A DNA stretch of 64,000 nt from a virus: positions 32,001-96,000 of IMG/VR virus record IMGVR_UViG_3300036768_001490; one strand, given 5' to 3'. Below, one piece after another: positions 40,416 to 56,297 of the stretch. The notes beneath the pieces were generated by a model. The model worked only from the letters and a program-made list of their open reading frames with translations. It had not been told where the DNA came from and did not search any database. Within the stretch, counting starts at the first letter, position 1. The number at the start of each line of letters is the position of its first letter. A program made the translations under genes and the position numbers.

Positions 40416-40446
40416 GGTTTCGTCCTCTCTTCCTTCAGGCATGGCG

Positions 40447-40452
40447 ATTATA
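40447..40452 (-). promoter_or_regulatory. Candidate -10 box TATAAT
   Basis: Perfect hexamer inside palindrome GATTATAATC, about 32 nt upstream of the 40415 start; no clear -35. Confidence 0.4.
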
Positions 40453-40485
40453 ATCACCAGCGCCGGTAAGTTGCCAGCCTGGCCG

Positions 40486-43400
40486 TTACCAGCCAAAGGT
40501 CTCGCGGAACTGGCGTCTCCAGTGCAGGGGATTGAGCGCCGGCAGCGTTCTGCCGCCCGTGCCTGGAATGACCGCATTGCCTGTCAAATAGTCATCCCAG
40601 CCGGCCGCGGGACGCGAAAGAACGTCAACGATAAATTCAGTAGCATTGACAGCTCGGCGGAGGCCCTTGGTGTCCTTGGTGCCCTTCGCGTTCTCTTCAG
40701 CTAGCGCGCCAGCTAGAGCGTCCCTGACCAAGGTGGCCTCTTCCAGCATCTTCCCTCCCGTGAGCGGGTTCAGCGCTTCCTTGCGCTCCTCGTGACTGAA
40801 CGGGTTGATCATCTTGTGCCCCATCGCCATGTAAGTGAGGGACTGGGTGGGCGAAAGTTTGGAACTTTCTATGACAAGCTGGGCAGGCGTCTTGGTCTTG
40901 GCAATTTCCACATCGCGGATGAATTTCTCTTCCTGTTGGCTCAAACTTTCTCCTCTGGCCTTCTTGGCCTTGAGCCTCTCTGCTTCGGGGATGTCCTTTT
41001 CATGCAGTTGCTTCATCACGATCTTCTCGGCCTCCGTGGCAATGCCTTCCGCCTGCGCTGACATCGTCGTGCCGGCCGTGTGGATGTCCGCGACCGTCTT
41101 GGTAATGTTCTTAATCAGGTTCATGCTGCCTTCTGGGTTGTTGCTGTCCCGCTCAACGCGCGTGATCCCCTTGAACAGCCGGTGGAGCGAGTCGGCGACG
41201 ACGTTGCCCAGGGGGCCGTAATCCTTCGCACGCTCGTCTTCACTCAGCTGCAGTGCCGGCGTGAACGCGAAGGGGTCCACCGCGTTTCCACTCGCCAGCT
41301 CGCCTCGCCGGAGCCTGTCAGCCTGGTGTTTCCGGATGAGATTGCCAACGGCCGCCTGCGCCTCGAAGTGCTTGCCGATGTTCGACTCGGACGTCAGCTT
41401 GCTCTTGGCGGCGCCGTCGTCTGCCTGATCTTCGGACAGTGCCCGGTACAGGTCTTTGAAAAGGTTGTAACCCTCCACGCCCAGCTGGGCCCCTCCTTCC
41501 AGCATGATACGGCCGGTGTTGACGTGGTTGGAGCGAATGCCAAGTGCCGTGAGCAAGTTCATGCCCGGCTGCTGCCGCCACTTGTACAAGTCGAACAGGT
41601 CGGCCGTTCCCTGGATGGCCTTCTGGTTCTCGCTGCGGAACTTTCCCTCGGACGAGAGCAGCCGGTCCCAGCCGCCCTCTTGCCAGTCCTCCAGAATGTT
41701 GCTTCCGGCTTCGCCCAGGCCAGCGATAATAGCCGCAGGATTGACGACATATTTGCCTAGCCAGCCGGCCACGTTGAGCATCTTCGTGCCGCCGGACGTC
41801 AGTCCTCCCGCCGCGTTGAGGAGCCGAGCCGTAGTTCTTTCGCCCAGCAGGCGTTTCGCCACGTTGCTGGACGCTAGCCAATTCAGGGCCGTGCCGGTGC
41901 CTTGCATTCCACTGCCGGAAATCGAGGACAGCGCCTGCACGCCGGAAAACGGCAAGGACGCCAGGCTGACATAATTGTGCCACTTGAGCTGATTGTCGTC
42001 TTTCTTGCCTGCTGCCTCTGCATTATTGCTATTGTTTACGGCGGCGTCGCTATTGTTTACGACAGCATCTTCATGGCCACGGCCCAGGTCGAAGGCCAAG
42101 TAGGCCGGCGGCACAGCATACTGGTGGGGCGAGTGGGACGATTGGGAATACGGGTGGGGCAAGTGGGGCGATTGGGAGAAATCGTAGCTGAAGGTCCGCG
42201 GGCCGGTGACGTAGTCACCGTAGTCAGGCTGCTGCTGGCTGTTCTCGCCGGGACGTCCCGTCCCAGGCAGGTATCCTGGCGGCACCGGTCTGCCCTGTCC
42301 CTGCTGGCCTGGTCCAAAGGGCTGGTACTGGTACTGGCCGCGCACGTAGGGGCTCCGGCTGGTCAGGACATGGATCGCGTTCGGGTCCAGCAGGGAGCCG
42401 AAGCGGATGGCAGAGCCGACCAGGCCGCCGAAGCCAGAGTTGGGATCGTTCGGGTTGCCGCCGCCGCGGACAAACATGGCGGCCTGACGCGGATCGTCGT
42501 GCTGCCACATCATGGGTCTGCCCCGCGTGTACTCCCCCTGGTGCGGCGCGTACTGGTAGGGCTGGTACATGGTGGCGGGAGTGCGCACGACGCCGCGGAA
42601 CGGGTCTGGATTCCGGACAGAGGTTGGGCGGGTGGCCCCGGCGGTATGGGAGTTCCCTGCTGGCTGTGCCGCCGGCTTCGCCCCGCCGGAAGGATTCGCT
42701 CCGCCAGAGGCCGCCACCGGCTTGCTGCTGTCCTTGTTGTCGTCGGCGGCGGACTTGCCGAAGAACTGCGCCTCCGCCTGCCGCAGCAGGGCGTCCGCTT
42801 CCTGCCGCTGCGCTTCCTGGTCCCAGGACGACTTGTACCAGCCGCGGAAGATGCGGGACAGCATGCTGCCGCCCTCGTCGCTGCCGGCAGCTGCCGGAGG
42901 AGGTAAGTCGAGCGCCAGGCCGTCCGTGGCTACTAGCCGCGGTGCCGTCTTTCGCCGCGCCCCTCCCCGGGCGCTTTCCTCCATGCCGTCGGGAACGGTC
43001 CCCGGCTCCGGCTGACGTACCGGTCCGACCAGGCCGAAGTCCGAGGCCCTGGCCAGACCCGGCACGAAGCTGGTGCCGGACTCGTCCCAGCCGCGCCCCC
43101 GGTGGACGGCCTCCAGCAGGCCACCCTTGATGCCGGAGCCGTACATGCGCGCCAGGACGTCCGGGTCGTGCTGGAGAGAGTACATGCCGCGGATCATCTC
43201 GCCCTGGAACGGCGGCGGCTCGTCATGGACGACTACCCGCCGGATGCCGAACTGCTGAAGTTCCCGGATGACGCTGGGACGGACCCGGGTGCCGATGGTG
43301 TAGTGCAGCACCGGCTTCTCCAGGTACTTGCCGACCGCGCGGCGCACGTCCAGCTCCTGGTGGCCGGCGCGGGGCTGGTAGTTGTATTCCAGCGTGGCGT

Positions 43401-45372
43401 AGGGCACCACGTCGTCCGGCAGGTTCCCGCCGAACTCGTCCGTCAGGCGGACGTGGTTGATAAGGCCGCGGGCCAGGATTTCCACGTTGCGGCGGTTGAC
43501 CTTCAGCCCGGCCGACCGCATGGCGTCCGTGTAAGCCTGGACAAAGTAGCGGCGCCCCTCGCCGATGCCCTTGTGCTGCACGATCAGGTGTGGCTGCGGG
43601 ATACCGTCACTGATGACGTCACCGGCCTCGACCGTGTCGCCAGGACGGACCCGCAGGTTGAAGCCGGCGCCGACGTAGTGCCGGGTGCCGTTGATCCAGA
43701 CAAACTTGCCTCCGGCCGGAGCGTCCTCGATGCGCTCCACCGTGCCATCCTCGGTCGCGTGCGCTGCTCCGCCGCGGAACACCTTGGGCACCTGGATCAG
43801 CTGGTTAATGTACTGGAAACCGCTCACGGCCTTCTCACGTCCGGCCACGCCACCGCTGTGCTTGGCCGAAAGCTGCGCCTGCGACAGCGGCTCCGACAGG
43901 GCCTGGGCGGCGGTGAGGCCAACCTGCTCGCCGCGGCCAGGCAGAACGCCGCGTTCACGCACACCAACGTCCCGTGCGTAAACACCACCATCAGGACTGC
44001 CGCCCACCACCGGACTTCGCACAAGAATGCGAGCATGGCCTCTCCGCCGGATGTCCTTGAGAATCTTTGGCGTCAGCACCGTGTTCTTCCGGTACGGCCC
44101 CACGTCCTGAGCCAGCAGGGCGCCCTCGTTGTCCGGGTCGTCCACGTCCACGGGAAGTCCGCGCGGCGTCGGGTCGTCCCGCGGGTCTTCCTCGTCCACT
44201 ACCACCAGGCGGTGCGAGACCTGGTTGAGCTGCTTGCTGTTGGACACGACCATGCCGTTGGCCAGCACGAACAGGTGGTCCGGGTGGTCCACTTCGATGT
44301 CATAGGTCGGCCGCCAGCCGACTTCTTCCCGCCGCACCAGGCGGCACAGCAGGACGTGCCTGTCCACCGGCCGCCGCGGCTCCTCTCCGTACCCGACCCC
44401 GGCCGGGACAAGGGCCGGCTGCCGCGGCCTCGCCGCCACCAGGCGGAGGCCGGCAGCTGCCACCTGACGCAGCGGCAGCAGGAGGTAGGGACGTCGTCCT
44501 CCCGGCGGCGCTGCCAGGACACGGTGGTCCTCTGTCGCCTCGATGGTGATGGCGGCCCTGCCGGCGCGGAAGACGTACCGCCAGACCCGGCGGAGACCGT
44601 GGACAAACAGGGCCCGGACCCGCGTGGGGAACGTCCGTCCCCGCCGGTCGGCACCGAGGACAAGGTCGCCGGGACGCAGCTGCTCGATGGGGACGGAAGT
44701 CCCTTCCGGCCGGCACACCTGCGTTCCTTCCGCCAGGCACAGGAAACCGGCGTCCTGCGTGGAAAACTTGGTCGCCATGACGCCCTTGCGCGCCCCGTAG
44801 GTGCCTGCCCAGTATTCGACTGGCCGGTAGCCCTCGCTGTAGGACGACAGGATCGGCAGAGGCAGCACGTCGTCGCGGTGGTCGGCGAAGAGCAGGCCGG
44901 TGCCGCGCAGCTCCGCCAGGTTCATGGCGTTGCCGCGCGAACCGGACAGCACCTGGAAGGCCAGTGGGTTTTCCTCCCGCAGCGATTCCTGGTAGACCTC
45001 GTCTGGAATCTTCTCGGCCGCGCGGCCCACGGTCAGGACCAGCAGGTCGTTCCGCTGCCGGTCGGTCAGCCGGTCGTCGTCAAGGATCTTCTTGACCTTG
45101 GACCACAGTTCCCGTTGCTTCCGACGGGCAATCTCGGACTTGGCCATGTGCCGCAGGCCGAAGGAGAAGCCGCCCGTCTCCGACGCGGCCTGGCGGCCGA
45201 TGTCCGCCAGGTGCTTGCTAACGTCGCGGTATCGCTCCGTATGCTTCCGCGCCAGCTGGCGCAGCAACTCCGCCATGCCCTTCTTGTCCAGGACACGCTG
45301 GTAGTCGCGCAGGTCTTCTGGCAACGTCTCGTTGACCAGGAGCTGCCCCATGCTGGTGCGTAGAACTGGCAT
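40486..45372 (-). CDS. rpoC: Phage RNA polymerase beta-prime C-terminal subunit (bridge helix, trigger loop) with a mini-intein and an ~850-aa non-RNAP C-terminal extension
   Basis: YSEGYRPVEYWAGTYGARKGVMATKFSTQDAGFL/SKQL matches the bridge helix (FREGL..EYF..THGARKGL.DTALKT..SGYLTRRL); AAQALSEPLSQAQLSAKHSGG matches the trigger loop (AAQSIGEPGTQLTMRTFH.GG). Confidence 0.85.
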   Translation of the reverse strand: MPVLRTSMGQLLVNETLPEDLRDYQRVLDKKGMAELLRQLARKHTERYRDVSKHLADIGRQAASETGGFSFGLRHMAKSEIARRKQRELWSKVKKILDDDRLTDRQRNDLLVLTVGRAAEKIPDEVYQESLREENPLAFQVLSGSRGNAMNLAELRGTGLLFADHRDDVLPLPILSSYSEGYRPVEYWAGTYGARKGVMATKFSTQDAGFLCLAEGTQVCRPEGTSVPIEQLRPGDLVLGADRRGRTFPTRVRALFVHGLRRVWRYVFRAGRAAITIEATEDHRVLAAPPGGRRPYLLLPLRQVAAAGLRLVAARPRQPALVPAGVGYGEEPRRPVDRHVLLCRLVRREEVGWRPTYDIEVDHPDHLFVLANGMVVSNSKQLNQVSHRLVVVDEEDPRDDPTPRGLPVDVDDPDNEGALLAQDVGPYRKNTVLTPKILKDIRRRGHARILVRSPVVGGSPDGGVYARDVGVRERGVLPGRGEQVGLTAAQALSEPLSQAQLSAKHSGGVAGREKAVSGFQYINQLIQVPKVFRGGAAHATEDGTVERIEDAPAGGKFVWINGTRHYVGAGFNLRVRPGDTVEAGDVISDGIPQPHLIVQHKGIGEGRRYFVQAYTDAMRSAGLKVNRRNVEILARGLINHVRLTDEFGGNLPDDVVPYATLEYNYQPRAGHQELDVRRAVGKYLEKPVLHYTIGTRVRPSVIRELQQFGIRRVVVHDEPPPFQGEMIRGMYSLQHDPDVLARMYGSGIKGGLLEAVHRGRGWDESGTSFVPGLARASDFGLVGPVRQPEPGTVPDGMEESARGGARRKTAPRLVATDGLALDLPPPAAAGSDEGGSMLSRIFRGWYKSSWDQEAQRQEADALLRQAEAQFFGKSAADDNKDSSKPVAASGGANPSGGAKPAAQPAGNSHTAGATRPTSVRNPDPFRGVVRTPATMYQPYQYAPHQGEYTRGRPMMWQHDDPRQAAMFVRGGGNPNDPNSGFGGLVGSAIRFGSLLDPNAIHVLTSRSPYVRGQYQYQPFGPGQQGQGRPVPPGYLPGTGRPGENSQQQPDYGDYVTGPRTFSYDFSQSPHLPHPYSQSSHSPHQYAVPPAYLAFDLGRGHEDAVVNNSDAAVNNSNNAEAAGKKDDNQLKWHNYVSLASLPFSGVQALSSISGSGMQGTGTALNWLASSNVAKRLLGERTTARLLNAAGGLTSGGTKMLNVAGWLGKYVVNPAAIIAGLGEAGSNILEDWQEGGWDRLLSSEGKFRSENQKAIQGTADLFDLYKWRQQPGMNLLTALGIRSNHVNTGRIMLEGGAQLGVEGYNLFKDLYRALSEDQADDGAAKSKLTSESNIGKHFEAQAAVGNLIRKHQADRLRRGELASGNAVDPFAFTPALQLSEDERAKDYGPLGNVVADSLHRLFKGITRVERDSNNPEGSMNLIKNITKTVADIHTAGTTMSAQAEGIATEAEKIVMKQLHEKDIPEAERLKAKKARGESLSQQEEKFIRDVEIAKTKTPAQLVIESSKLSPTQSLTYMAMGHKMINPFSHEERKEALNPLTGGKMLEEATLVRDALAGALAEENAKGTKDTKGLRRAVNATEFIVDVLSRPAAGWDDYLTGNAVIPGTGGRTLPALNPLHWRRQFRETFGW
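44239..44739 (-). mobile_element. Mini-intein (167 aa) in the RNAP bridge helix
   Basis: C1 LAEGTQV; block B ATEDHRV; block F/G TYDIEVDHPDHLFVLANGMVVSN followed by Ser; no endonuclease. Confidence 0.9.
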
Positions 45373-45374
45373 GG

Positions 45375-45794
45375 TCACTTCACCCACACCCTCTGGCCGT
45401 CAGCCAGGCGCAGGCAGCGCGACCGAGGGGAGAACAACCAGATGGTGATGCGCGGCTGGTTTGCCATGCATACCTCGCGGCAACGCCATACATGGTGCTC
45501 GTCCTGGCTGCTGGACACCAGCAACAGGACCACAGGCAGGCGTCGGGAGCGGGCGCCGTAATAGAGGGACTTACCCACTGCCTCGGCCCAGTCGGGTGCC
45601 CAGGCCACGGCGACGGCATGGTGAGGGGTCAGAAGGTCGATGCGCGTGCCGTCGTAGTTGCTTGCCCCGGCCTGGGCCGGCAGGCCGCTGGAGGTCAGGC
45701 TGGCTGCCAGGCATCCAGCCCAGTCCTCCTCTTCGGGAACGTTGCCGCCGGTCAGCAGGCGGCGCAGCCACGACCGGAAGTGCTGGAGCATCAC
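45375..45794 (-). CDS. Small PD-(D/E)XK-like protein, apparently degenerate
   Basis: DGTRIDLLTPHHAVAVAW..DWAEAVGKSLYY resembles the DGTRxD...AIExD...WAEAIGQ pattern but lacks the acidic ExD residues. Confidence 0.4.
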   Translation of the reverse strand: MMLQHFRSWLRRLLTGGNVPEEEDWAGCLAASLTSSGLPAQAGASNYDGTRIDLLTPHHAVAVAWAPDWAEAVGKSLYYGARSRRLPVVLLLVSSSQDEHHVWRCREVCMANQPRITIWLFSPRSRCLRLADGQRVWVK

Positions 45795-45800
45795 GCCGGC

Positions 45801-45817
45801 CCAAAATCCGTTTTTTA
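45801..45817 (-). promoter_or_regulatory. 17-bp AT-rich motif TAAAAAACGGATTTTGG, copy 2
   Basis: Identical to 22970..22986. Confidence 0.5.
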
Positions 45818-46639
45818 GCTGTCCGCGGGCACCTGCCCGTCCGCTGGGACCGGGACCGCCACGTCCACTTCCTCCTGGTCCTGCTCCTGTCGGGACCGTC
45901 CCTTCCGGGACCGTCCCTTCCGGGGACGCTGCTCCGTGGTCGCGTCAACGGCAGCGTCCGCTTCCTGGACGAAAGAGGAGGGAGAAGGGACGTCCTCCGT
46001 CTCCGCCGCTGGCAGGTTGGCTGGATGCAGCAGGCATTCATCCACGGGGCCGCTGCCTGGGTCCGGACGCGGCTGCCCTCCGTCCTGCTGGGCCCGGGCC
46101 GCCGGGGCCTCTTCGGCCGGAGTGTAGGACAGGCGGCATTTGTGGTACTGGTCCTCCGTGATGACCTCGCGCGTCACCATCATTTCCAGGGCAGCGCGGG
46201 TCCGGCGCAGCAGCGCTCCGGCGCCATGCCGGACGTAAATGACCAGGCCGATAGCACCCTGGTGCAGCCGGGCCGCCGCTTCCTGCAAGACCTCAGAGAT
46301 GTCTCCTTCCTCACGCACGACCAGGCGGTCGTCGCCTCCTGTGGGCCAGAAGGCGGTCCTGGCCGGCGGCGGCGCAGCGGCCGTCCGCTCCGGGCAGCGG
46401 TAATACTCATCCGCCGAATAGAGGACGTCCGGGTAGCGCGTGGCCGGTCGCCTAGCCAGCCGGCAGGCCGGCGCGGGCCGCGCCCGCGTGTAGCACTCCT
46501 TGGTCACGGCCGAGACGTCGTTGCTGGCGTAATACCTGTCCGCGCTGCTCCGGTCGCGCCAGAAGTTTGTCCGCCGGGAAGGGATGGATCTGCGTGGAAG
46601 TTCCGGTGCCAAGGGCATTCCCTCCTTGTGTGCCTGCAT
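45815..46639 (-). CDS. Hypothetical protein with acidic/Pro-rich C-terminus
   Basis: 274 aa open frame filling the gap between co-directional genes. Confidence 0.5.
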   Translation of the reverse strand: MQAHKEGMPLAPELPRRSIPSRRTNFWRDRSSADRYYASNDVSAVTKECYTRARPAPACRLARRPATRYPDVLYSADEYYRCPERTAAAPPPARTAFWPTGGDDRLVVREEGDISEVLQEAAARLHQGAIGLVIYVRHGAGALLRRTRAALEMMVTREVITEDQYHKCRLSYTPAEEAPAARAQQDGGQPRPDPGSGPVDECLLHPANLPAAETEDVPSPSSFVQEADAAVDATTEQRPRKGRSRKGRSRQEQDQEEVDVAVPVPADGQVPADS

Positions 46640-46678
46640 GGCAAGGGCCGTTTCCGCCTGGGATTATCACCCGTCACG

Positions 46679-46960
46679 TCACTCGCGTGGACGGGGTCCA
46701 GCGATCAGCTGGGCTCCCGGGGGTGGGCCCGACAAACGGATGCGGTCCACCACGGTCGTCTGGGAGACGCCGAGGCGGCGCAGCAGGCGGTTAAAGTCCT
46801 CCATGCCCGCCATGCTGGCCGAGTAGGCGCCGTCCGGGCCGTAGTGAGCGGCGGCGAAGATCGGCGTGCCGTCGTCCGTCTCCAGGATGACCTGGCTGAC
46901 CGGAAGGACCAGTACCTGCCCGCGGCCAATGCCGTCGAGCGGGATGAGCTTGGCGATCAT
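46679..46960 (-). CDS. Small hypothetical protein
   Basis: 93 aa, ATGA overlap with the upstream gene, SD AAAGG. Confidence 0.65.
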   Translation of the reverse strand: MIAKLIPLDGIGRGQVLVLPVSQVILETDDGTPIFAAAHYGPDGAYSASMAGMEDFNRLLRRLGVSQTTVVDRIRLSGPPPGAQLIAGPRPRE

Positions 46961-47787
46961 GCAGCGCCGCCCTTTGCCGCCCGTGCCGCCTGGCGGAAAC
47001 GGGCAATGGCAGCCGCCCGGTCCTGCACGGCGCTGAAGCCACTTGTGTCAAAGGATGAGCCGTCAAAGGCGTGGCCGTTGCCGCGGTAGGCCCGGCGGTC
47101 ATGCGCCGGCTTCTCTGCCCCCGGCTTGCCCGCCGGCTGTATGCCCTCCAGGGGAGGAATGGGAGGGATCGCGCCCTCCTCGCCCCCTGCGCCGTCAGCA
47201 GACGGGTCGATGCCAGGCATGGGACCGCCCGTGGTCGAGGCGTGGGCCAGGTTCGTGAGGTCTTGCTGGGTGGCGACCATCTCCGAGGCAGGGATCTTGA
47301 TGCCGAGCTGGTCGGCGATGCGTGCCTGGATCTTCAGGATCGACAGCAGCACGGCGTTGGTGTCGATCTTGGGCTTGATGACGCCGCCCGTGTTGCCACC
47401 GTTGCCACCGTTGCCACCGTTGCCACCGTTGCCACCAGAACCGTTGCTCGACTGCATCTGCTGGATCTGCTGCTGGAGCTGACGTACCTGGTCCTGCAAG
47501 GCAGCCACGTCCGCGCTGTTGTCCGGCGACGGCGGTGGCGACGGCATGCCGCCCGCTGCCATCATGCTGGGGTCTGCCGGCATGCCGCCCGCTGCCATCA
47601 TGCTGGGGTCTGCCGGCATGCCGCCCGCTGCCATCATGCTAGGGTCTGCCGGCATGCCGCCCGCTGCCATCATGCTGGGGTCGCCGGCGGGCACGAAGGC
47701 ACGCTTGTGGAACCCGCCCAGGTTCCGCCGTGCCATCTTGAGGACTTCAAAATTGACCAGATGGTCGTCGCGCGTGGGGGCGCCCAT
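46957..47787 (-). CDS. Low-complexity protein with GMPADPSMMAAG and GGN repeats
   Basis: ATG 47787 with SD GGAG; HKRA-F after a 30-aa leader; 36-bp repeat x4 (about 47544..47690) and 9-bp repeat x5 (47392..47436). Confidence 0.65.
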   Translation of the reverse strand: MGAPTRDDHLVNFEVLKMARRNLGGFHKRAFVPAGDPSMMAAGGMPADPSMMAAGGMPADPSMMAAGGMPADPSMMAAGGMPSPPPSPDNSADVAALQDQVRQLQQQIQQMQSSNGSGGNGGNGGNGGNGGNTGGVIKPKIDTNAVLLSILKIQARIADQLGIKIPASEMVATQQDLTNLAHASTTGGPMPGIDPSADGAGGEEGAIPPIPPLEGIQPAGKPGAEKPAHDRRAYRGNGHAFDGSSFDTSGFSAVQDRAAAIARFRQAARAAKGGAA

Positions 47788-47879
47788 GTGAAAGCTCCAT
47801 TTTTCGTGGTCACGTACCGTGTGGCCCAGTCTACCGTACCTTGCCGGGCGCACACCAGTCCGCTTCGTCCGCCGCCCCC

Positions 47880-48380
47880 CTACGACGCCCGCCGCGGCCG
47901 CCGGAGACGGCGCCACAGCCGGCGGAGCGGCCGGACGTAGTAGTGGCCGACGAAGCCGCGGACCAGGGGCCAGCCGAGAGCCCGGCGGACGTCGTTTTCC
48001 CAGGCCGTGATCGGGCACTCGGCCCGGCTGCACACGGACCAGATGATGGCGAAGCAGGCAGGAAAGGCCAGATACCACGGGGCGTAGAACGGGGCGACGC
48101 AGAAGGCGGCCGCGTTCGCGCCCACCAGGGCCGAGTGGAACAGCCAGATCGCGGCCCAGCGGAATATGAGCCACGTCCGCTGCCACTCCCGCTCCCGGAC
48201 GGCCCCCACCTCCTCCGCTGCCCGGCGCAGCATGGCCAGCGACTGCCGGAGCGAGTCGTTCGTGCTGGTCTGGCCCACGGCCTCGTCCAGGGCGGTAAAG
48301 AGACAGCGCAGGTCCGCGTCCGAAAGGTACTCCCGTGCCAGGGCCAGGATGTTGCTGGCCTCCTCGGTCGTTGTTGGCAT
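47880..48380 (-). CDS. Membrane protein, DUF2784-like
   Basis: Two hydrophobic helices followed by CPITAWENDVRRALG...GFVGHYY, resembling the CPLT.lE..LR...GFI.HY motif. Confidence 0.45.
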   Translation of the reverse strand: MPTTTEEASNILALAREYLSDADLRCLFTALDEAVGQTSTNDSLRQSLAMLRRAAEEVGAVREREWQRTWLIFRWAAIWLFHSALVGANAAAFCVAPFYAPWYLAFPACFAIIWSVCSRAECPITAWENDVRRALGWPLVRGFVGHYYVRPLRRLWRRLRRPRRAS

Positions 48381-48381
48381 G

Positions 48382-50136
48382 TCAACCTCCCAGGATCTCG
48401 ACAGGGGTGTCCACTGTGATTTCACCGCGCCGATAGGCCCGGATGGCATCCTGGCGGGAACGGAACACGCGCGGGCGCTTCCTTGACACGGAGCGCCGCC
48501 GGGTGGACTCGTACAGCCCGCCCAGGTACTCCTGCCCCGGCATGTGTACCGGCGACTGGAAGTCCGCCGGCGAGAACAGGGACCGGCTGGGCAGCAGCCG
48601 GTCGTATGCCTCCTTCACCGCCTCCGGCGACGTCGGCACGTGGAACTGCATGGCGTCGCCGTCGAAGTCGGCGTTGAACCCCTTGGTCACGAGGGGGCTC
48701 AGGTGGATGGTGTTTCCGCTTACCAGCCGGGGGCGAAAGGCCAGGATGCCGAACTTGTGCAGCACGGGGGCCCGGTTGACGTACACGGGGCGCTCTTCCA
48801 TTTCCTCTTGCATGATGGAGCGGGCCAGCGGCGTCCGCTCCCGGACGTGGCGCAGGGCCTCGCGGATCGGCAGGCCGCGCCGCCGGAGCCGGCGGACGAT
48901 GAACTTGCTGTAGACGTCGAACGCCTGGTTCTCCGGGATGCCGATGGAGTCCATGTCCATGTCCGGGTCCGGCGTGATGACGGCCCGGCCGACGTTGTCC
49001 ACGGTGGTGGAGAGCAGCTTGCGCTGCATCGTGCCGAACTTGGGGGATTCTCCGAAGATGCTCTTCAGGATCCCACTGACGCCCTTCTCCTGGAGCTTGG
49101 GGTGCATGGGCTCGCCGAGACCCACGACGGCCTGGAAGGCGTGGTAGACGGCCAGGCGCTCGGGGCCCGCGTTCTTCTTGCCCACCTGCTTGACCATGTC
49201 GTTGTAGTTGCGGATGGCGTCCAGCAGCTCCTTGTACAGGTAGTTGGGGTCCGATATAAGCGGGATGCCCGTGTCTCCCAGCATGGACACGGGCCGGAAG
49301 GCAGGCGGCAGCACGGGCACCCGATGCAGCACCCAGTCGCGCGGGTGCAGGCCGAGCTTCTTGGCGCTGTCCAGGTACTGCCAGCGACGGATCGCCTCGT
49401 CCCGGTGGGAAGCGCGGCCGTACCGCCACTCCGCCCGGGCCTTGTCCAGCTCCTTGTCCAGGTCCAGCTGGTCCAGCGCCTTGGCCACGGCCTGGGGTCC
49501 GCTGCCGTACCCCGGCAGAGACTCGTCTCCGGCCAGCACCGCCTCGAACTTCTTCTGCGTCAGGCCCAGGATGCGGCGGATCGGCTCCTCCATGACCGGG
49601 TTCGGCAGCGGCTCGGGCAACTCGATGGCGGCCCAGCGCCGGCCGCCGTGTCCACCCGTCAGTTTGGGGTCAAACAGGCCGCCGGGGATGGGACTCATGT
49701 TGTCGTCGAAGCGCACCAGCTCCCCGGAACGGATGATGCGGTTGCCTGCCAGCTCCTTGACGTCCTGGTCCGTCAGGGCCATGACGTTTGCCCGGTGCCC
49801 GTCCGGGACGACATTGATGCCTGCCGCCTTCAGCTGGTGGACGAACTTATCGTACACGTAGGGCACCTTGGGCTTCACCGGCGTGAAGCCCAACATGAAC
49901 TGGAGCCAGAACTGTTCGTTCTTCTGTCCCCGGATGAGGCGGGCGTCCCGGAGCGTCTCCGTGGCCCCGTGGGACATCAGGGCGTTGACGTCCAGCATGG
50001 ACAGCCTCTTCGAGTTGCTGACGAGCACGCCGCAGACCGCGTACAGGTGGACGTCAGCGACCGTGATGTCGTAGACATCGGCCAGGCTGTCCCTGCCGGC
50101 AGACGGACAGTATGGCCGGACCTCCCTGACGCGCAT
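48382..50136 (-). CDS. rpoC: C-intein fused to RNAP beta C-terminus and beta-prime N-terminal half, including the catalytic NADFDGD
   Basis: NRAPVLHKFGILAF...GFNADFDGDAMQFHVP (motif at 48655..48675), VPVLPPAFRP and GRAVITPDP; N-terminal extein SKRLSMLDVNALMSHGATETLRD aligns with beta [23 protein letters not shown]. Confidence 0.9.
   Translation of the reverse strand: MRVREVRPYCPSAGRDSLADVYDITVADVHLYAVCGVLVSNSKRLSMLDVNALMSHGATETLRDARLIRGQKNEQFWLQFMLGFTPVKPKVPYVYDKFVHQLKAAGINVVPDGHRANVMALTDQDVKELAGNRIIRSGELVRFDDNMSPIPGGLFDPKLTGGHGGRRWAAIELPEPLPNPVMEEPIRRILGLTQKKFEAVLAGDESLPGYGSGPQAVAKALDQLDLDKELDKARAEWRYGRASHRDEAIRRWQYLDSAKKLGLHPRDWVLHRVPVLPPAFRPVSMLGDTGIPLISDPNYLYKELLDAIRNYNDMVKQVGKKNAGPERLAVYHAFQAVVGLGEPMHPKLQEKGVSGILKSIFGESPKFGTMQRKLLSTTVDNVGRAVITPDPDMDMDSIGIPENQAFDVYSKFIVRRLRRRGLPIREALRHVRERTPLARSIMQEEMEERPVYVNRAPVLHKFGILAFRPRLVSGNTIHLSPLVTKGFNADFDGDAMQFHVPTSPEAVKEAYDRLLPSRSLFSPADFQSPVHMPGQEYLGGLYESTRRRSVSRKRPRVFRSRQDAIRAYRRGEITVDTPVEILGG
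50014..50136 (-). mobile_element. Split intein, C-terminal half (41 aa)
   Basis: MRVREVRPY...VYDITVADVHLYAVCGVLVSN followed by Ser; own ATG with SD GGAGG at 7 nt. Confidence 0.85.
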
Positions 50137-50167
50137 GCTACGCCCTCCCTGGAGACCGCGCCGGACC

Positions 50168-53100
50168 CTAGCACTCCATCAGGTCGTCTCCCGCCGCCAG
50201 CTGGCACGCCAGCTTCCTGCTGCCATCTTGCAGCACGAACTCATGGTTGCGGGTGCATACCAGCGTGGCTCCGTCCGCCAGCTCGACCTCCACCAGCGTG
50301 GACGCGGGCACCCGGTAGTGGAACCAGTCCGTGACGGCGTACCAGCCTGCCTCCTGGCCCTCCAGGCCCCGCGCGCGGACGCGCAGAGGCAGACGTCCCT
50401 CCACCACCTGCCGGATCGTCCGCGGCCCCTGGTCCGTGTGCAACACGGTGTCGCCCAGGAAGCAGCCCATTTCCCCTCCCTTGGACGGGCTCTCGTCCAG
50501 GGAGTACGCGCCCCCGCCGCGGCCCTGGCCCTTGGAATTGCCGGACAGCATCGGCTTGCCGTTGCGACGGACATACAGCAGACCTGTCTCCATTTCCGCG
50601 CAGTAGACGATGCCGTTGTAGTCCTTGGTCCAGAAACGGCCCTCGCCCGGACCGGCCCAGGCATCGGTGCGCTCCGGCACCACGCGGCAGACCCAGGAGG
50701 GCAGGAAGTGGGAACTGGGCCCGGGCGGCCGCCGCTGCACGATGGCGCCAAGTCCCGCCCGGATGAACAGCTCCTGGAAATCGTCCGCCAGGCCCCGGGA
50801 CAGGGACACGTAGCCCAGGCGCCGCCCCGCCTCGTCCCTGCCGCAGCTAGCCAGCCAGGCGGCACAGGTCCGGCGCAGCACGTCCGGCGGCTGCTCCAGC
50901 AAGTGGCGTGGCAGGCGCTTGGAGCGGGCATGCCCGCCGTACCGCCGCAGGTGTTGCGCAAGAGGACGGTGCGCCAGGACGTAACCCTTACCGGGGACGT
51001 ACTCCCACGGCAGGGCCAGACGTTGCAGCAGCTCCTCCAGCGCCGCAGCCCGCGCCGGCCCGTCGCCCGGCTTTTGCCCACGGACGAAGAAGGTGACGTC
51101 CGCGCGCCGCGGCGTCACCCGGGCATGGCCCGCGCCGGCCCACCAGCCGACCAGCTCGGCGTAGTCCCCGCAGTCCATCTCCTGGCCGCACACGAGCAGT
51201 CTGGCAGCGCAGACCTGGCCATTCTCCACTGGCCAGCCAAACTGGGGCACGCGGAAGCGGCGGCCATGCACCTCCTGCGCCGGCAGCAGGGCGCACACCG
51301 GGTCGGGACACTGGCCCAGGTCCGCGTACAGGCGGTGGTTTCCCGTGACCAGGTAGTCGAGGTCGCGGCTCGTGAAGCCGTACAGGGTGCCACGGAAGGA
51401 AGCCCGGATGAGGCGCAGCGGCCGCTCGAACACCAGCCGGCCGCCACGCACCGTGGCCAGCTCGTCGTCGCAGCGCACCTGGGGCCAGGGCACCCAGCCA
51501 CGGGCAGTCAGGGCCTCCGTGGCGGCATCGAAGCACTCCGCCGTGTGGTGCAGCTTCATGAAGAAGCGGTTGCCGGTAGCGATCCCGCGGACCTTCATGT
51601 CCCTTTCCGGCCAGAAGATGTCCTCGGTGTCCTTCAGGCCGTGCCGCTCCAGCTGCCGCCGCACCCAGGCGGTCATGTCCTCCTCGCCCTCGAAATCAGT
51701 CACCTTGATGGGGCGTCCCAGCTTCCGGGCCAGCTTGCCCAGCATGGCCTCCGCGATCTGGGCCGGGTTGACACGGGTGATGACGCCGAGCGGGTTCAGC
51801 AGGACTTCCAAAGGCTCGCCGTCCTCGCCCCGCGGCATCAGGCTGTCTGGCACAATGGCGGCGACCACGCCCTTGTCCCCGTAGCGCCCGGACATCTTGT
51901 CGCCGACCTGCATTGGCTCGACGGACTTGACCACGACGACCGGCCCGCTCTTGCTCCAGACCACGTCGGTGACGACGCCCGGCTGGTGGTGCTTCCACAG
52001 CACGCTCTCGTCGTTGTACCCAGGCTGCTTCTTCCGGTGGACCTTGTTCTGTGCATGCTCCCGCTGCCGCGCCGCCAAGATGAGCGGGTCGCCGTACTGG
52101 ACGACCGTGCCCGGCTTGACCGTGCCGTCGTCGTTGATGGTGTCCAGCACCTTCCGCTCGAACTTCTGGGGAAAGAGGCCGATGAAATCGCGCTTGCCCA
52201 GCTTGTGTCGGTCGCTCACCTCCAGACTGTGCTGGTACATGTGCTCGGACGACATCTTCTTGGCCATGCCCTCGGAGATCACGACGGCGTCCTCGTAGTT
52301 GTACCCCAGGTAGGGCCAGTAGGCCACGCGGGCATTGACCCCCAGGGCCATCGCGCCGTTGTTGTCCGTGTAGTTGCTCCGGGCCAAAAGCTGGCCGCGT
52401 CGGAAGTTGTCGCCTGGTCGGACCAGGGGGATCTGGTGGATGAACGTCTTGCGGTTGAATGGATAGTTGTCGTACAGCTCGATCTCTTCCTTCCGGCCAT
52501 CCGCGTACTGGACCTTGATTACTCCGTCACGGACGTCGATGACCCGTCCGTCCGCACCAGCCTCCACTGCGCCAAGGTGCTTGCCGTACTCTTCCTCAAA
52601 AGATCTCTTCCCCTTGGACTCTGGTGTGCCGGATTGTACAAGCGGAGCCTCGGCGGCGATGAGAGGAAGGGCCTGCGTAATGTAGCGGCTGCCCATCGCC
52701 ACGCGCTGTCCCTTGACCATGCTTTTAAGCGGCACCAGGTTGCCCAGAGGGCTGAACGTGTCCTCGAAATGAGGGATGACAAAGTCGATGTCTTTCTTGC
52801 GCACATAGGACAGTTTGCCTCCCTTCATCACAGGCACGCGCTTGCTGTCCCAGCGGAGGACGTCCGGCGTGGCCACGGCCGCGTCGGCCAGGTCGCGCGG
52901 CCCCTTCCAGACCAGCTTTCCCCTCCGGTCGAGCAGCTGCACGTACAAGCTGCCGTCACTCCCCTTGCGCGCACCCCGGGCCACATGCAGGTCCACGCCT
53001 GCCCGGAAGCTGTTACCAGACCAGTGACCCGGAGTGCCGTCCCGGCGGACGTAGAGAAGTCCGCCCGGCACCGTGGCGCAGTAGACGGGGCCGTCGTAGT

Positions 53101-55258
53101 CCAGCCGGTAGTAGGACGCTGGCGATGCGCCCCATTCCTCGTCGCCAGCATAGAGGCGGACGCGGTGCCGGCGCCGCTGCCCGTCCGGCTCAGGACGCAG
53201 CACGCTGGGGATGCCCAGCGTGAAGGCCAGCAGGACCATCTGCTTGGCCAGGGCCAGGCTGCTAGACTGGAACTGGACGAACCGGCCGTGCCGGTCCTTC
53301 CTTCCACCGGCCAGCAGCAGGACCGCGTACAGGCGGCGGCGGGACTCCAGGCTGCCGGCCAGCAGACAATCCGGCAGCCTGCGGCCGTGTGGACCGTCCA
53401 GCTCCCGGCAGAGACCGGCCAGGCGCCTGTCCTCCAACACGAAGACCTGGCCGGCCGCGTCATACTCCCAGACAAGTCCCAGGCGCGTCAGCAGGGCGGT
53501 GAGCCGCGCGTGCTGGGAACGGTACGCTTGCGGACGGCAAGACAGGCGCAGCCTGTCCGGGTTGATGACGTCTTCCTCCTGGTCAGCCGTCCCGGCCGCG
53601 GCCGTGTACCAGCAGACCAGCTCCGCCCAATCCTCCGCCGACCCGGGCCGACCCGAGGTCCACTCCTCCCAGGCACCGTATAGATCATCGCCGCGGTAGC
53701 AGGGACCGCCGCCGAGATGGAGGCGGGGCCGGCCAAAGGCTGCCGCGGCCGTCTCTTCCTGGTAAGTCCCGTCCGCCTGGCCGCGCGGCCGCACCCACAG
53801 GCGATGGTCCGGCGTGACCAGATAGCTCAGCAGCCGCGTCCGCACACCCAGCAGCTTGCCACGGTAATGGCCACAGTGCAGCTGCGTGGGCCGGTGCCAC
53901 TCCACGGTGCCACCGACCAGGCAGGCCAGCTCGTCCTTCTGGGCCACTTCCGGCCACGCCTTCCAGCCGGAGCGAGTCATCACCTCGGTCCGGGCGTCGT
54001 AGCACTCCGGCGTGCGCAGCGGGTCGATGAAGCCCAGGTGCGACGGCTGCACGGAGCGGGCCTCGTCCGGAATGGAGTCGATGTTCGGGATGCCGCCCTC
54101 TCCCATGCGCGTGATCCGCGTCTGCTTGTCAAACACTTCCGCCGGGTTGATCTCCTCCAGCGCCTCTGCCAGGCCGCTGCCCAGCAAGACCTCCTCGATC
54201 TGAGGCGTCAGGGCACCGCTCGGCATCTTGTCCAGCGAGCCGGCCAGGGAGACCTTGCGGAACAGCTGCGCCAGGGTCCGGCCGTGGTCGCGGGCGATGC
54301 GCTCGGCGAACATGTCCTCGGGACCGAGGAAGACCTGGTAAGCCAGGTGGTCGCGGTCGTCCGGGTCGGTTTCCCGGCGGCTGACCTGGAGCAGCTTCTG
54401 CGTGGCCTTGAGGATGACCTCCTTGCTGAGCCGGTCATACGGCTGCCCCAGGGTGTGGCGGGTGACTTCCGGGTCCAGCTCCATCGCCTGGAACTTGGCG
54501 ACCAGCTTTTGCCGTTCGCTGCCCTCGTCCCCGTCCCGCTCGTTCTTCCGCAGCAGGCGGTCGGCCAGTTTTCGCATGGTCCCCCGGTCGGGATACTGGG
54601 CATTGGCGGCGTACAGATCGTTGCCCCAGTAGGCCCGCACCTCCCGGTCGGTGGCCCCCATAGCTTGCAGCAGCGGCAGTAGCGGCATCTCCGCCTGGCC
54701 CAGGCGGATCTTGAACAATCCCTTTTCTGGGTCCAGGAAGTAACGGTGCGAGACGCCCTTCCCTGGCAGCACGTTGACGTGGCTTTCCAGCTCCCCGTTG
54801 TCCTTGATGCGGGTGAAGATGCCCGGCCGCAGCCGTTGCTGGTGGCTGACCGTGTACTCGTTGCCCCGGTGGATGAACGTCCCCAGGCTGGACAGATAGG
54901 GCACGCGCGCGATGACCTGGGTGCGACGTTGTAGCTCCTTGCCAGTGGCCGAGTCCTCCAGCACCCAGGTGCCCTGCAAGCGCCGGGCCAGCGTGCCGCC
55001 CGTGAGAACGGCCTGCTTGCGCTGACGGCGAGAGAAGCGCTCCGGGTCGGCCCACTTCACGTCGGTCAGGCGCAGACGGTGCTTGCCGTCATCCAGCGGA
55101 GCAATGGACTGGGCGGCATGGAGCACGTTGTCGTAGAGGGAACGGCGCGTGGCATCGGTGTCGCCAAAGGCGCGCAATGCCGGCAGAGGTGACGGCGGAG
55201 CCGCGCCGGCGCCGGCGAGCACGGCGTCGGCCCTCGTTGGTGGCAGTAGCGACGACAC
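50168..55258 (-). CDS. rpoB: Phage RNA polymerase beta subunit with two cis-inteins and a C-terminal N-intein
   Basis: GFIDPLRTPE (cf. GRVCPIETPE), QRVAMGSRYITQAL (cf. RALMGANMQRQA), GDKMSGRYGDKGVV (cf. GDKMAGRHGNKGVI), FMKLHH (cf. MLKLNH). Likely GTG start at 55258 with SD AAGGAAGG. Confidence 0.9.
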   Translation of the reverse strand: MSSLLPPTRADAVLAGAGAAPPSPLPALRAFGDTDATRRSLYDNVLHAAQSIAPLDDGKHRLRLTDVKWADPERFSRRQRKQAVLTGGTLARRLQGTWVLEDSATGKELQRRTQVIARVPYLSSLGTFIHRGNEYTVSHQQRLRPGIFTRIKDNGELESHVNVLPGKGVSHRYFLDPEKGLFKIRLGQAEMPLLPLLQAMGATDREVRAYWGNDLYAANAQYPDRGTMRKLADRLLRKNERDGDEGSERQKLVAKFQAMELDPEVTRHTLGQPYDRLSKEVILKATQKLLQVSRRETDPDDRDHLAYQVFLGPEDMFAERIARDHGRTLAQLFRKVSLAGSLDKMPSGALTPQIEEVLLGSGLAEALEEINPAEVFDKQTRITRMGEGGIPNIDSIPDEARSVQPSHLGFIDPLRTPECYDARTEVMTRSGWKAWPEVAQKDELACLVGGTVEWHRPTQLHCGHYRGKLLGVRTRLLSYLVTPDHRLWVRPRGQADGTYQEETAAAAFGRPRLHLGGGPCYRGDDLYGAWEEWTSGRPGSAEDWAELVCWYTAAAGTADQEEDVINPDRLRLSCRPQAYRSQHARLTALLTRLGLVWEYDAAGQVFVLEDRRLAGLCRELDGPHGRRLPDCLLAGSLESRRRLYAVLLLAGGRKDRHGRFVQFQSSSLALAKQMVLLAFTLGIPSVLRPEPDGQRRRHRVRLYAGDEEWGASPASYYRLDYDGPVYCATVPGGLLYVRRDGTPGHWSGNSFRAGVDLHVARGARKGSDGSLYVQLLDRRGKLVWKGPRDLADAAVATPDVLRWDSKRVPVMKGGKLSYVRKKDIDFVIPHFEDTFSPLGNLVPLKSMVKGQRVAMGSRYITQALPLIAAEAPLVQSGTPESKGKRSFEEEYGKHLGAVEAGADGRVIDVRDGVIKVQYADGRKEEIELYDNYPFNRKTFIHQIPLVRPGDNFRRGQLLARSNYTDNNGAMALGVNARVAYWPYLGYNYEDAVVISEGMAKKMSSEHMYQHSLEVSDRHKLGKRDFIGLFPQKFERKVLDTINDDGTVKPGTVVQYGDPLILAARQREHAQNKVHRKKQPGYNDESVLWKHHQPGVVTDVVWSKSGPVVVVKSVEPMQVGDKMSGRYGDKGVVAAIVPDSLMPRGEDGEPLEVLLNPLGVITRVNPAQIAEAMLGKLARKLGRPIKVTDFEGEEDMTAWVRRQLERHGLKDTEDIFWPERDMKVRGIATGNRFFMKLHHTAECFDAATEALTARGWVPWPQVRCDDELATVRGGRLVFERPLRLIRASFRGTLYGFTSRDLDYLVTGNHRLYADLGQCPDPVCALLPAQEVHGRRFRVPQFGWPVENGQVCAARLLVCGQEMDCGDYAELVGWWAGAGHARVTPRRADVTFFVRGQKPGDGPARAAALEELLQRLALPWEYVPGKGYVLAHRPLAQHLRRYGGHARSKRLPRHLLEQPPDVLRRTCAAWLASCGRDEAGRRLGYVSLSRGLADDFQELFIRAGLGAIVQRRPPGPSSHFLPSWVCRVVPERTDAWAGPGEGRFWTKDYNGIVYCAEMETGLLYVRRNGKPMLSGNSKGQGRGGGAYSLDESPSKGGEMGCFLGDTVLHTDQGPRTIRQVVEGRLPLRVRARGLEGQEAGWYAVTDWFHYRVPASTLVEVELADGATLVCTRNHEFVLQDGSRKLACQLAAGDDLMEC
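50171..50464 (-). mobile_element. Split intein, N-terminal half (98 aa)
   Basis: C1 FLGDTVLHT; block B VCTRNHEF; ends GDDLMEC-stop with no block F/G. Confidence 0.85.
50537..51535 (-). mobile_element. Intein 2 in RNAP beta (333 aa) with degenerate LAGLIDADG domain
   Basis: C1 FDAATEALT; block B VTGNHRL; end VYCAEMETGLLYVRRNGKPMLSGN followed by Ser. Confidence 0.9.
53012..54004 (-). mobile_element. Intein 1 in RNAP beta (331 aa) with degenerate LAGLIDADG domain
   Basis: C1 YDARTEVMT; block B VTPDHRL; end VYCATVPGGLLYVRRDGTPGHWSGN followed by Ser. Confidence 0.9.
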
Positions 55259-55298
55259 GGCTTGCCCCTTCCTTGCCAAGTCACCTTCCCGTCCGCCG

Positions 55299-56297
55299 CT
55301 ACCGTGTCCGGCCGGACGGAGCGCGGCCATGTCCCCCTTCTGTCCCGGCAGGCACTGGCGGCACCATGACCGGCTCGGGAATGGCGTAGATCGCGTCCGG
55401 CTGCTGCTCGAACAGGCGCCGCTGCTGGCGACGCAAGGCGTTCTCCAGGAGCTTCCGCCGCGAACGCTTCTCTATCCGGTCGTACACGATGGCCCCCGTC
55501 AGCAAGGCGCTGAGGCCGGCATAGGCCCCATAAATGCCGGGAAGGCGCTCCAGGAAGCCGGGAATGCGATCCATGAGGCCGCCGATGTCCAGTGCCTCCT
55601 TTTCCAGGGAAGTGCCCAGCAGCTGCTGCATCCTGCCCCACAGTGCGTCGAGCGCCTTGCCGACCTTGACCATGTCCGGCTCGTCCTTCTCCTGGCCACG
55701 GTCGGCGGCCTTCTTGGGAGAAACGCCAGGCAGCGACTCCAGGGGCTCGTCGTACTGCGCGAGAATGGCCTGGCGGAACTCACGCCGCGCCTTGCTCAGC
55801 TCCTCCTCGTTTTCCCGCCGCCGCTGCTCCCGGAGCAGGTTCGTCAGGCCACCGTAGCCCAGGCCGAAGCCGCCGAGCGCGGCGGCGAACATGGCGGGGT
55901 AGTACCAGGGGAAGCCACCCTTGGAACGGGGCGGCGACACCTCCACCTGCACCTTCTCCACCTGCCCCTCCTTCACCTGCCCCTGCGGGGACTCCTCCAC
56001 CGGGTAGGGCAGCGGCAGCAGGGCAGGCCCCCAGCGCCGACGCTTGCGCTGCTTCGAGCGCATCATGTTGTACATGCCCACCGCGCTGGCGCCGGCGGCG
56101 CCGATGCCCAACGAGGCAAGGCCCAGTTTGCGGATGTCCTGCAATGCCTCGTCCTGGAGCTTGGACAGCTTCAGCCGCTTCACCGCGTTGACGAAGTTCT
56201 GCACGTCGTCCGGCGTGACATTCATCCCTTGCTTACTGGCGATTTCTTTCACCTGTGACGGGGAGAGAAAATTCGCGTTGCTGCGGAGGCCAAACAT
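55299..56297 (-). CDS. Glycine-rich multi-helix protein, putative internal virion/membrane protein
   Basis: 332 aa, three Gly/Ala-rich hydrophobic helices each followed by basic residues; KKA and EKEA sites. Confidence 0.6.
   Translation of the reverse strand: MFGLRSNANFLSPSQVKEIASKQGMNVTPDDVQNFVNAVKRLKLSKLQDEALQDIRKLGLASLGIGAAGASAVGMYNMMRSKQRKRRRWGPALLPLPYPVEESPQGQVKEGQVEKVQVEVSPPRSKGGFPWYYPAMFAAALGGFGLGYGGLTNLLREQRRRENEEELSKARREFRQAILAQYDEPLESLPGVSPKKAADRGQEKDEPDMVKVGKALDALWGRMQQLLGTSLEKEALDIGGLMDRIPGFLERLPGIYGAYAGLSALLTGAIVYDRIEKRSRRKLLENALRRQQRRLFEQQPDAIYAIPEPVMVPPVPAGTEGGHGRAPSGRTR

Follow-up and report, generated by a model that had tools for sequence, protein, structure and literature searches.

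The RNA polymerase locus

The window analyzed here, a stretch of 64,000 nucleotides (nt), corresponds to bases 32001-96000 of a single linear IMG/VR virus record (IMGVR_UViG_3300036768_001490; 182,719 bp), originating from an uncultured phage of approximately 183 kb in a microbial mat. Its minus strand encodes one bacterial-type RNA polymerase (RNAP) in three genes at 40486-55330 (Table 1; positions are those of the window, except where a contig prefix is given). RNAP homology in the record is confined to three minus-strand open reading frames (ORFs), which make up one RNAP set. We consider it likely that they represent the phage's own and only detectable RNAP and, judging from their sequence, that protein splicing turns the products of the three genes into two chains. 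The record has a GC content of 65%, and its minus strand carries nearly all of the genes that show a coding-type GC pattern. Two microbial-mat metagenome runs contain the polymerase region, and two separately assembled Logan contigs from two such runs, which may derive from the record's own source samples, present 0 differences over 49900-50600.

Gene 2 (P0002) joins the end of beta to the front of beta-prime. A nine-member family profile of its beta-end segment, the C-terminal clamp segment, matches E. coli beta at residues 1211-1337 of 1342 (E-value = 3.5e-13), the final matched position being the '..AAGINV' motif. Pairwise BLASTP of the 78 amino acids (aa) of the beta end against Salmonella RpoB gave an E-value of 0.06 in the wrong register and the profile search was used instead. 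In the same ORF, P0002 matches beta-prime of B. subtilis at 143-539 (E-value = 9e-52) and of E. coli at 180-546, it carries the Pfam Rpb1_2 domain (8e-28), and the NADFDGD magnesium site is located at aa 488-494, while the multiple alignment sets '..NVMALTDQDV..' on approximately residue 18 of E. coli beta-prime. The preliminary description of this DNA had proposed that the C-terminus of beta runs directly into beta-prime within 48382..50136, and the profile and beta-prime matches in one ORF bear this out.

The back of beta-prime is encoded by gene 3 (P0003), for which the ATG at 45372 is the most likely start, in agreement with the M-L-K/R-T-T start of its relatives. The bridge helix and the trigger loop were located by alignment to solved beta-prime chains, and polymerase homology stops near aa 785. 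P0002 ends at approximately E. coli residue 559 and P0003 begins just before TSMGQ, which is aligned with TTVGR. Since residue 12 of cyanobacterial RpoC2 aligns to residue 30 of P0003, the cyanobacterial split lies approximately 18 residues further on than the phage cut; the cut had initially been placed just before a TTxGR-like segment, near but not at the cyanobacterial split, and the alignment agrees. The 848-aa tail that follows in frame is partly conserved in the related contigs L007 and L008, long beta-prime-C ORFs being restricted to the nearest clade. It has no Pfam or PHROG match, and an atlas search gave only unnamed viral clusters with scores <0.8.

Table 1. Genes and features of the RNAP locus (window positions; residue numbers of E. 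coli by alignment)
Feature	Position	Strand	Description
P0001 (gene 1)	50168-55330	minus	1720 aa; beta to ~E. coli residue 1266
Beta extein 1, P0001 aa 1-442	54005..55330	minus	ends ..IDPLRTPE = E. coli beta E565
Intein 1, 331 aa	53012..54004	minus	Cys1, TPDH block B, ..SGN then Ser+1
Beta extein 2, 492 aa	51536..53011	minus	beta double-psi barrel; Pfam RNA_pol_Rpb2_6, 4e-49
Intein 2, 333 aa	50537..51535	minus	after ..MKLHHTAE (~E. coli beta 1240); ..SGN then Ser+1
Beta extein 3, 24 aa	50465..50536	minus	ends ..GGEMG (~E. coli beta 1266)
Split-intein N-half, 98 aa	50168..50464	minus	Cys1, TRNH block B, then TAG stop
Spacer, 31 nt, out of frame	50137..50167	minus	AGGGAGGG ribosome-binding site 6 nt before ATG
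P0002 (gene 2)	48382-50136	minus	584 aa; own ribosome-binding site
Split-intein C-half, 41 aa	50014..50136	minus	..VYDITV..GVLVSN then Ser+1
Last 68 residues of beta	49810..50013	minus	to ..AAGINV (E. coli beta 1337 of 1342)
~8 linker residues + beta-prime N-half	48382..49809	minus	clamp helices present; end at E. coli beta-prime ~559
P0004, Pro/Ala-rich protein	46957..48186	minus	likely start inside ORF; no Pfam family
P0005 + P0006, two small ORFs	45375..46639	minus	conserved in nearest relatives only
P0003 (gene 3), ORF	40486-45387	minus	1633 aa; Pfam Rpb1_5, 2e-15
Beta-prime C-half extein 1	44740..45372	minus	MPVLRTSMGQ (= TTVGR segment) to ..DAGFL, bridge helix, ~E. coli 796
Mini-intein 3, 167 aa	44239..44739	minus	bridge helix; Cys1, TEDH block B, ..VSN then Ser+1; Hint_2, E-value 4e-4
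Beta-prime C-half extein 2, 402 aa	43033..44238	minus	trigger loop; second zinc site lost
In-frame tail, 848 aa	40486..43032	minus	no known family, no cysteine, low-complexity stretches

Inteins and a naturally split intein

Four inserts interrupt the polymerase sequence. In the relative L010, which is approximately 55-67% identical over the exteins, all four are missing precisely, in frame and at the predicted junctions, and every insert bears Cys1, a TxxH block, a terminal Asn and Ser+1. Because of this precise in-frame absence and these signature residues, the four inserts are regarded as inteins. Beta exteins 1 and 2 are contiguous in intein-free L010, and intein 1 is precisely missing from most other relatives as well. 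Inteins 1 and 2 are paralogues, of which relatives bear copies at other polymerase sites, and the middle of intein 1 contains a weak LAGLIDADG-like region (LAGLIDADG_3, E-value = 0.035, under the cut-off).

The boundary between genes 1 and 2, which the preliminary description had overlooked, is a split intein, so that beta itself is broken. Its two halves are encoded by different ORFs, and the C-half bears a start codon of its own, as in naturally split inteins. Among the PDB matches of the N-half, 16 of 18 are inteins, including DnaE split inteins (E-values of 0.018-0.2); the C-half gave no meaningful PDB match. The split is taken as real because there is a stop, a change of frame and a ribosome-binding site before the ATG, because the two assemblies are identical, and because three relatives are split likewise. 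The 31-nt spacer has the same sequence in the two Logan contigs, and a frameshift or an assembly error at this boundary was ruled out by the ribosome-binding site, the two contigs and the split relatives. Specifically, L007, L008 and L009 carry the split at this very site, with homologous halves on separate ORFs and spacers of approximately 1.9, 0.3 and 0.4 kb, respectively. In L007, the closest relative, a 637-aa ORF without any Pfam or PHROG match (L007:8091-10004) is established between the halves, an arrangement that resembles the 'fractured genes' with a free-standing endonuclease.

Like the 'fractured gene' split inteins (Dassa et al., 2009; PMC2677866) and that of DnaE, this one consists of an N-half of approximately 100 aa and a C-half of approximately 40 aa on neighbouring genes of one strand. 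It differs from them in its host protein, which is the beta subunit of an RNAP, in its spacer of only 31 nt without an endonuclease gene, and in the missing penultimate His. The split intein is new, and the spacer lengths at this site, which range from 31 nt to 1.9 kb among it and its relatives, may represent consecutive steps in the origin of a split intein. Concerning other relatives, the beta frame of L012 (L012:5804-5932) and L072 (L072:8564-8692), two near-identical contigs from different metagenomes, is apparently broken by a stop a few codons after an intein.

Conservation of the layout among phages

The layout was compared across 82 related loci, namely 80 IMG/VR contigs (up to 235 kb), the cultured Salmonella phage Arash and Vibrio phage D181. 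The end of beta and the front of beta-prime share one ORF in 80/80 IMG/VR loci. The whole of beta is included in that ORF, with the back of beta-prime on a separate one, in 64 of the 82 loci, while nine have the same layout with the back of beta-prime either not found in the locus or lost at the contig end. Three loci encode all of beta and beta-prime in one ORF of approximately 2040-2080 aa, and six carry the core of beta on another ORF, three of these by the split intein. Where the back of beta-prime is separate (70 loci), it is found 636-5389 nt downstream (median 958), and all split members have the break at one and the same alignment position. In fused members, 2-4 residues join the two beta-prime segments at this place, where bacteria bear a variable loop. 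The partition, described at the outset as non-canonical, is real, and its conservation in relatives means that it is not an accident of one genome.

A second IMG/VR scan, with an alignment as query, yielded phage polymerases of three kinds; beta-prime of Rhizobium phage TM30, used as the sole query against viral contigs, had given no match. In dozens of phage contigs a single chain of 2000-2500 aa comprises both beta and beta-prime, and in a low-GC group, which is mReC, the two are separate genes, beta-prime (~900 aa) preceding beta (~1000 aa). The single-chain polymerases (e.g., L293-L299, L075, L077, L086; 2000-2500 aa) belong to the same clade as the enzyme of the record (support 99-100) and share with it the order beta then beta-prime, the sequence motif and the zinc-ribbon loss discussed below, although their chain is uninterrupted, unlike the split phage enzyme. 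In L300 (L300:4046-9817) and L305 (L305:3995-9901), with a GC of 0.34-0.35, the fused frame is broken only by single in-frame stops, a pattern that suggests a reassigned stop codon.

Among cultured phages, Arash (gp206, 1525 aa; gp216, 606 aa; sigma gp10; OQ632216; PMC10585845) and Vibrio phages D69, D148 and D181 also have beta fused to the front of beta-prime, with its back separate and cut at the same position. They likewise share the deleted zinc ribbon, a GGLFDxxxTGG motif and a gp10-like sigma, and they fall into the same clade. Identity between the Arash enzyme and that of the record is only about 30%, however, and Arash has neither inteins nor a split in beta; it retains the second zinc site, lacks the beta-prime-C tail and has its portal gene adjacent, unlike the phage of the record. 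In the Arash report gp206 and gp216 are named simply beta and beta-prime, and the fusion is not mentioned (PMC10585845). Beta of Vibrio phage D181 (L002, 5241-10755) is spread over two ORFs of 515 and 1006 aa that flank an annotated homing-endonuclease gene, and no intein homology was detected at that beta break.

Zinc sites, the GGLFDP motif and phylogeny

The zinc ribbon of beta-prime is gone, as 32 alignment columns with C70, C72, C85 and C88 are deleted in every family member; the beta-prime zinc-binding Cys cluster, first noted as missing from the window, is therefore absent throughout the family, and the deletion spans the whole fused phage clade. The second zinc site (C814, C888, C895, C898) is replaced in the record's subclade and kept in Arash, L075 and L293. 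Neither the 2119 extein residues nor the 848 tail residues contain a single cysteine, while the inteins contain 29. Ahead of the zinc-ribbon deletion, the fused phage clade carries the motif GGLFD[PE]x[LI]TGG, as compared with GGLFDPRM in giant-virus Rpb1, DGLFCxxIFGP in bacteria and GLFSxQIFGP in the mReC phages. The archaeal/eukaryotic type that had been ascribed to the GGLFDP motif was thus recovered as a likeness to Rpb1 resting on two or three positions.

A concatenated beta and beta-prime tree (46 rows, 1967 columns, LG+G4), which included 28 bacteria of nine phyla, separated the family from the bacteria by a branch with a support of 100 and a stem of 1.7 changes per site. Beta-prime trees rooted on giant-virus Rpb1 (100 rows under LG+G4; 57 rows under LG+C20+F+G4 with posterior mean site frequencies, PMSF) recovered the bacteria at 100, the mReC type at 100 and the fused phage clade, including the record's family, at 99-100; the split members group at 96-99, together with Arash and D181. 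The exteins consequently do not fall inside the sampled bacteria, a placement that would have spoken against the preliminary description. Its term 'deep-branching' is not demonstrated: bacteria, mReC, the fused clade and the TM30/Va2 phages all emerge from one polytomy at the base of the tree, their branches are 1-1.7 changes per site long and the amino-acid compositions are skewed. These trees come from quick searches and were built without archaea and several bacterial phyla.

A rival reading is a fairly recent capture of the enzyme from a bacterium followed by fast evolution, in which case the outside position would be a long-branch artefact and the partition late tinkering. The stem of 1-1.7 changes per site and the skewed amino-acid make-up are in line with a capture of this kind, as is the clearly bacterial type of the enzyme, with an E-value of 1e-52 to bacterial beta-prime, clamp helices and a sigma-70-family partner. 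We hold it to be possible but somewhat doubtful, because no phylum is prominent as a donor (the best 80 of 599 bacterial RpoC matches come from many phyla, each with an identity of 33-37%), bacteria are monophyletic at 100 under both LG+G4 and the C20 site-mixture model, and the GGLFDP state is common to Rpb1-type enzymes and not to bacteria. At the other extreme, the fused phage polymerases might be an old sister lineage of all bacterial RNAPs, a single chain that never needed alpha or omega and in which the GGLFDP motif, common to it and to archaeal and eukaryotic enzymes, is ancestral, now re-split by a gene insertion and a split intein and yet working, cysteine-free and virion-delivered; we consider this rather improbable.

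It had also been suggested that the lineage may be that of the mReC phages (Weinheimer and Aylward, 2020; PMC7481178), and this does not hold, as the mReC contig L363 and ten others alike form their own clade (100), which excludes the record's family. L363 is a contig of 152,423 bp in the supplement of that paper, with a beta of 1006 aa and a beta-prime of 933 aa (PMC7481178). The mReC phages are alike in being uncultured tailed phages with a bacterial-type RNAP outside the bacteria and with no alpha reported. Unlike the phage of the record, they have a low GC, a retained zinc ribbon, GLFSxQIFGP and separate genes in the order beta-prime then beta, and some of them have two RNAP sets. In the supplement, mReC rows give two different near-full-length proteins each, and in supplementary file 5 several contigs are entered with two beta/beta-prime pairs (~1000/900 and ~1365/1005 aa), hence two polymerase sets (PMC7481178). 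The record shares with the mReC group neither the clade placement nor the separate near-full-length genes nor a gp23-type capsid. Its candidate head protein at 26909-27850 has PHROG 2522 (5.5e-5) as its sole match, and no Pfam match to the T4 gp23-type major capsid (PF07068) was found for it at an E-value of 0.01.

Partner subunits and a sigma-like gene

Alpha and omega (PF01000, PF01192) were not found in the 182.7-kb record, while all 14 control genomes matched, and sigma region 2 was not found in the window or in the whole record. A sigma-like gene is nevertheless present 2.2 kb left of the window on the minus strand (G000:C1:29062-29805; L006:1471-2214), encoding a 248-aa homologue of Arash gp10 (tblastn E-value = 8e-15; PHROG 351 'sigma factor', 1e-14; Sigma70_r3, 33.8 bits, over the cut-off). 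The claim that the window holds no alpha, omega or sigma gene was accurate, and for alpha and omega it extends to the whole record, but for sigma it fails outside the window owing to this gp10 homologue. A scan of 40000-56500 revealed no sigma-70-like promoters, and no RNA runs were listed as containing the RNAP stretch.

Proposed maturation, assembly and delivery

In the course of maturation, the three contiguous inteins would splice in cis, while the two halves of the split intein would bind each other and splice in trans. The predicted mature products are a beta/beta-prime-N chain of approximately 1501 aa and a beta-prime-C/tail chain of approximately 1461 aa. The covalent tether between beta and beta-prime may replace the alpha dimer and omega as an assembly aid, a role that we liken to that of the natural fusions of Helicobacteraceae and Wolbachia. 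The gp10-homologous sigma-like protein would confer promoter recognition by way of the clamp helices that the enzyme has kept. Judging from phage Arash, virions probably contain the enzyme and deliver it with the DNA, and the loss of cysteine and zinc as well as the added tail may be adaptations to such delivery. In the virion mass spectrometry of Arash, the one phage for which the enzyme is known from virions, gp206 gave the most spectra (3516), as compared with 1333 for the major capsid protein; gp216 (1210 spectra) and sigma gp10 were detected as well (PMC10585845). With respect to history, the wider phage clade would have started as one fused beta to beta-prime gene, a gene insertion would then have cut beta-prime at the permissive loop before the TTxGR segment, and in the record's lineage an intein in beta would later have become split. 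The ancestor of the clade was most likely a full beta to beta-prime fusion; consequently, what is new are the breaks that a fused gene acquired afterwards, and not a primitive partition.

Several findings weigh against this scheme. CheckV estimates the record to be about 84% complete, so a subunit or a second RNAP may have been missed. All four inteins lack the usual penultimate His, ending in GN or SN instead of HN, and the Pfam and PDB matches of the split-intein halves are weak (best E-value = 0.018). The Arash 'virion' list comprises 116 proteins, and its authors name carry-over of an abundant enzyme as possible (PMC10585845), while in the record the portal homologue (G000:C1:130804-132003, 29% identical to Arash gp204) is located approximately 45 kb from the RNAP genes. 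Finally, the fused L329 nests among the split members in the trees, so that a single origin of the beta-prime break is uncertain.

If the penultimate Ser in place of His and the weak matches of the halves are given more weight, the intein halves might bind without splicing, or gene 1 might be decaying, leaving three non-covalent chains or a dead polymerase. This appears very unlikely to us, as all four split relatives retain Cys1, TxxH, the terminal Asn and Ser+1 (47-64% identity), the exteins are all undamaged and show a strong codon-position GC bias, there is no other RNAP in the record, and the three other inteins of the enzyme are also without His, so that the trait is tolerated or compensated. 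Concerning delivery, the two-chain enzyme might instead not be a virion protein at all: host RNAP would transcribe the early genes, the phage enzyme with its sigma the middle and late ones, and its presence in the Arash virion would be carry-over. Besides the long protein list with the over-abundance named by its authors and the RNAP genes that are not beside the portal gene, a sigma-family factor is present, as in phages redirecting transcription late. We still regard this as unlikely, given the spectra of Arash gp206 relative to the major capsid protein and an enzyme that is free of cysteine and zinc and bears an 848-aa tail. The RNAP genes lie, moreover, in one long same-strand block with head and tail genes (the weak major-head match at 26909-27850 and a strong tail-protein match at 19057-22113), which we count against a non-virion enzyme. 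Virion delivery of a trans-spliced, two-chain enzyme is the reading that we prefer.

Comparison with known systems

Each element of the enzyme is already known, namely phage multisubunit polymerases, fusion of beta to beta-prime, splits of beta-prime and split inteins, and it is their combination that we did not find described. Likewise, no description of the fused or two-chain layout or of the fused phage clade was found in the searchable literature, whose coverage leaves out most subscription journals. Natural fusions of beta to beta-prime occur in Helicobacteraceae and Wolbachia (PMC7483510), where the C-terminus of beta is joined to the N-terminus of beta-prime as in the phage, but these enzymes are cellular, have alpha, omega and zinc sites, and their beta-prime is unsplit. 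Splits after the beta-prime barrel are known from cyanobacteria and phiKZ-type phages (PMC7598289). Those of cyanobacterial and chloroplast rpoC1/rpoC2 and of phiKZ/AR9 interrupt beta-prime behind its catalytic barrel, in the permissive region that also contains the phage cut (PMC7598289), whereas the phage cut precedes the TTxGR segment, approximately 18 residues upstream of the cyanobacterial one. The phiKZ-type RNAPs, which are far more divergent, also have a split beta (two or three pieces), lack sigma and come as a virion and a non-virion set; the record, with one RNAP set and a sigma-like gene, is set apart from the phiKZ/AR9 type by its gene layout. The virion RNAP of Thermus phage P23-45, which is fused to a tape-measure protein (PMC10770324), resembles the present enzyme as a two-barrel polymerase in frame with a large virion-type polypeptide, but it is an unrelated, highly divergent, single-chain enzyme, and the tail in the record is of no recognisable family. 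What sets the record's lineage apart is a naturally split intein that interrupts the fused chain itself.

To our knowledge, all cellular RNA polymerases consist of two large subunits assembled on an alpha-type platform. A large clade of phages apparently manages without alpha, omega and zinc by means of the beta to beta-prime tether and tolerates breaks at two defined places, and is thereby a natural experiment on which connections in RNA polymerase are essential. As predicted from the genes of the record, its RNA polymerase would be completed only through protein trans-splicing. The cultured members (Arash and the Vibrio phages) make assembly, sigma dependence, virion delivery and rifampicin resistance testable at the bench. 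The family is readily mis-annotated as 'beta' and 'beta-prime'.

Neighbouring genes

Most neighbouring genes of the RNAP block have no match in Pfam and PHROGs, including P0004-P0006 between genes 2 and 3. A homologue of P0004 directly follows the beta/beta-prime-N gene in ten relatives (tblastn; e.g., L018:11604-12374 and L007:11841-12578). Proteins of this type have a conserved C-terminal helix and might act as partners of the polymerase or be located inside the virion. A homing endonuclease as the cause of the beta-prime break was considered and rejected, because the conserved gap gene is Pro/Ala-rich and without a nuclease domain. The stop of P0006 lies 2 nt before the start codon of beta-prime-C. 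Elsewhere in the window, a 547-aa protein with collagen triple-helix repeats is encoded at 23422-25065 (Pfam Collagen, 5e-55), and a ribonucleotide reductase with an ATP-cone and a B12-type insertion domain at 59415-62228 (PHROG 367, 2.5e-118).

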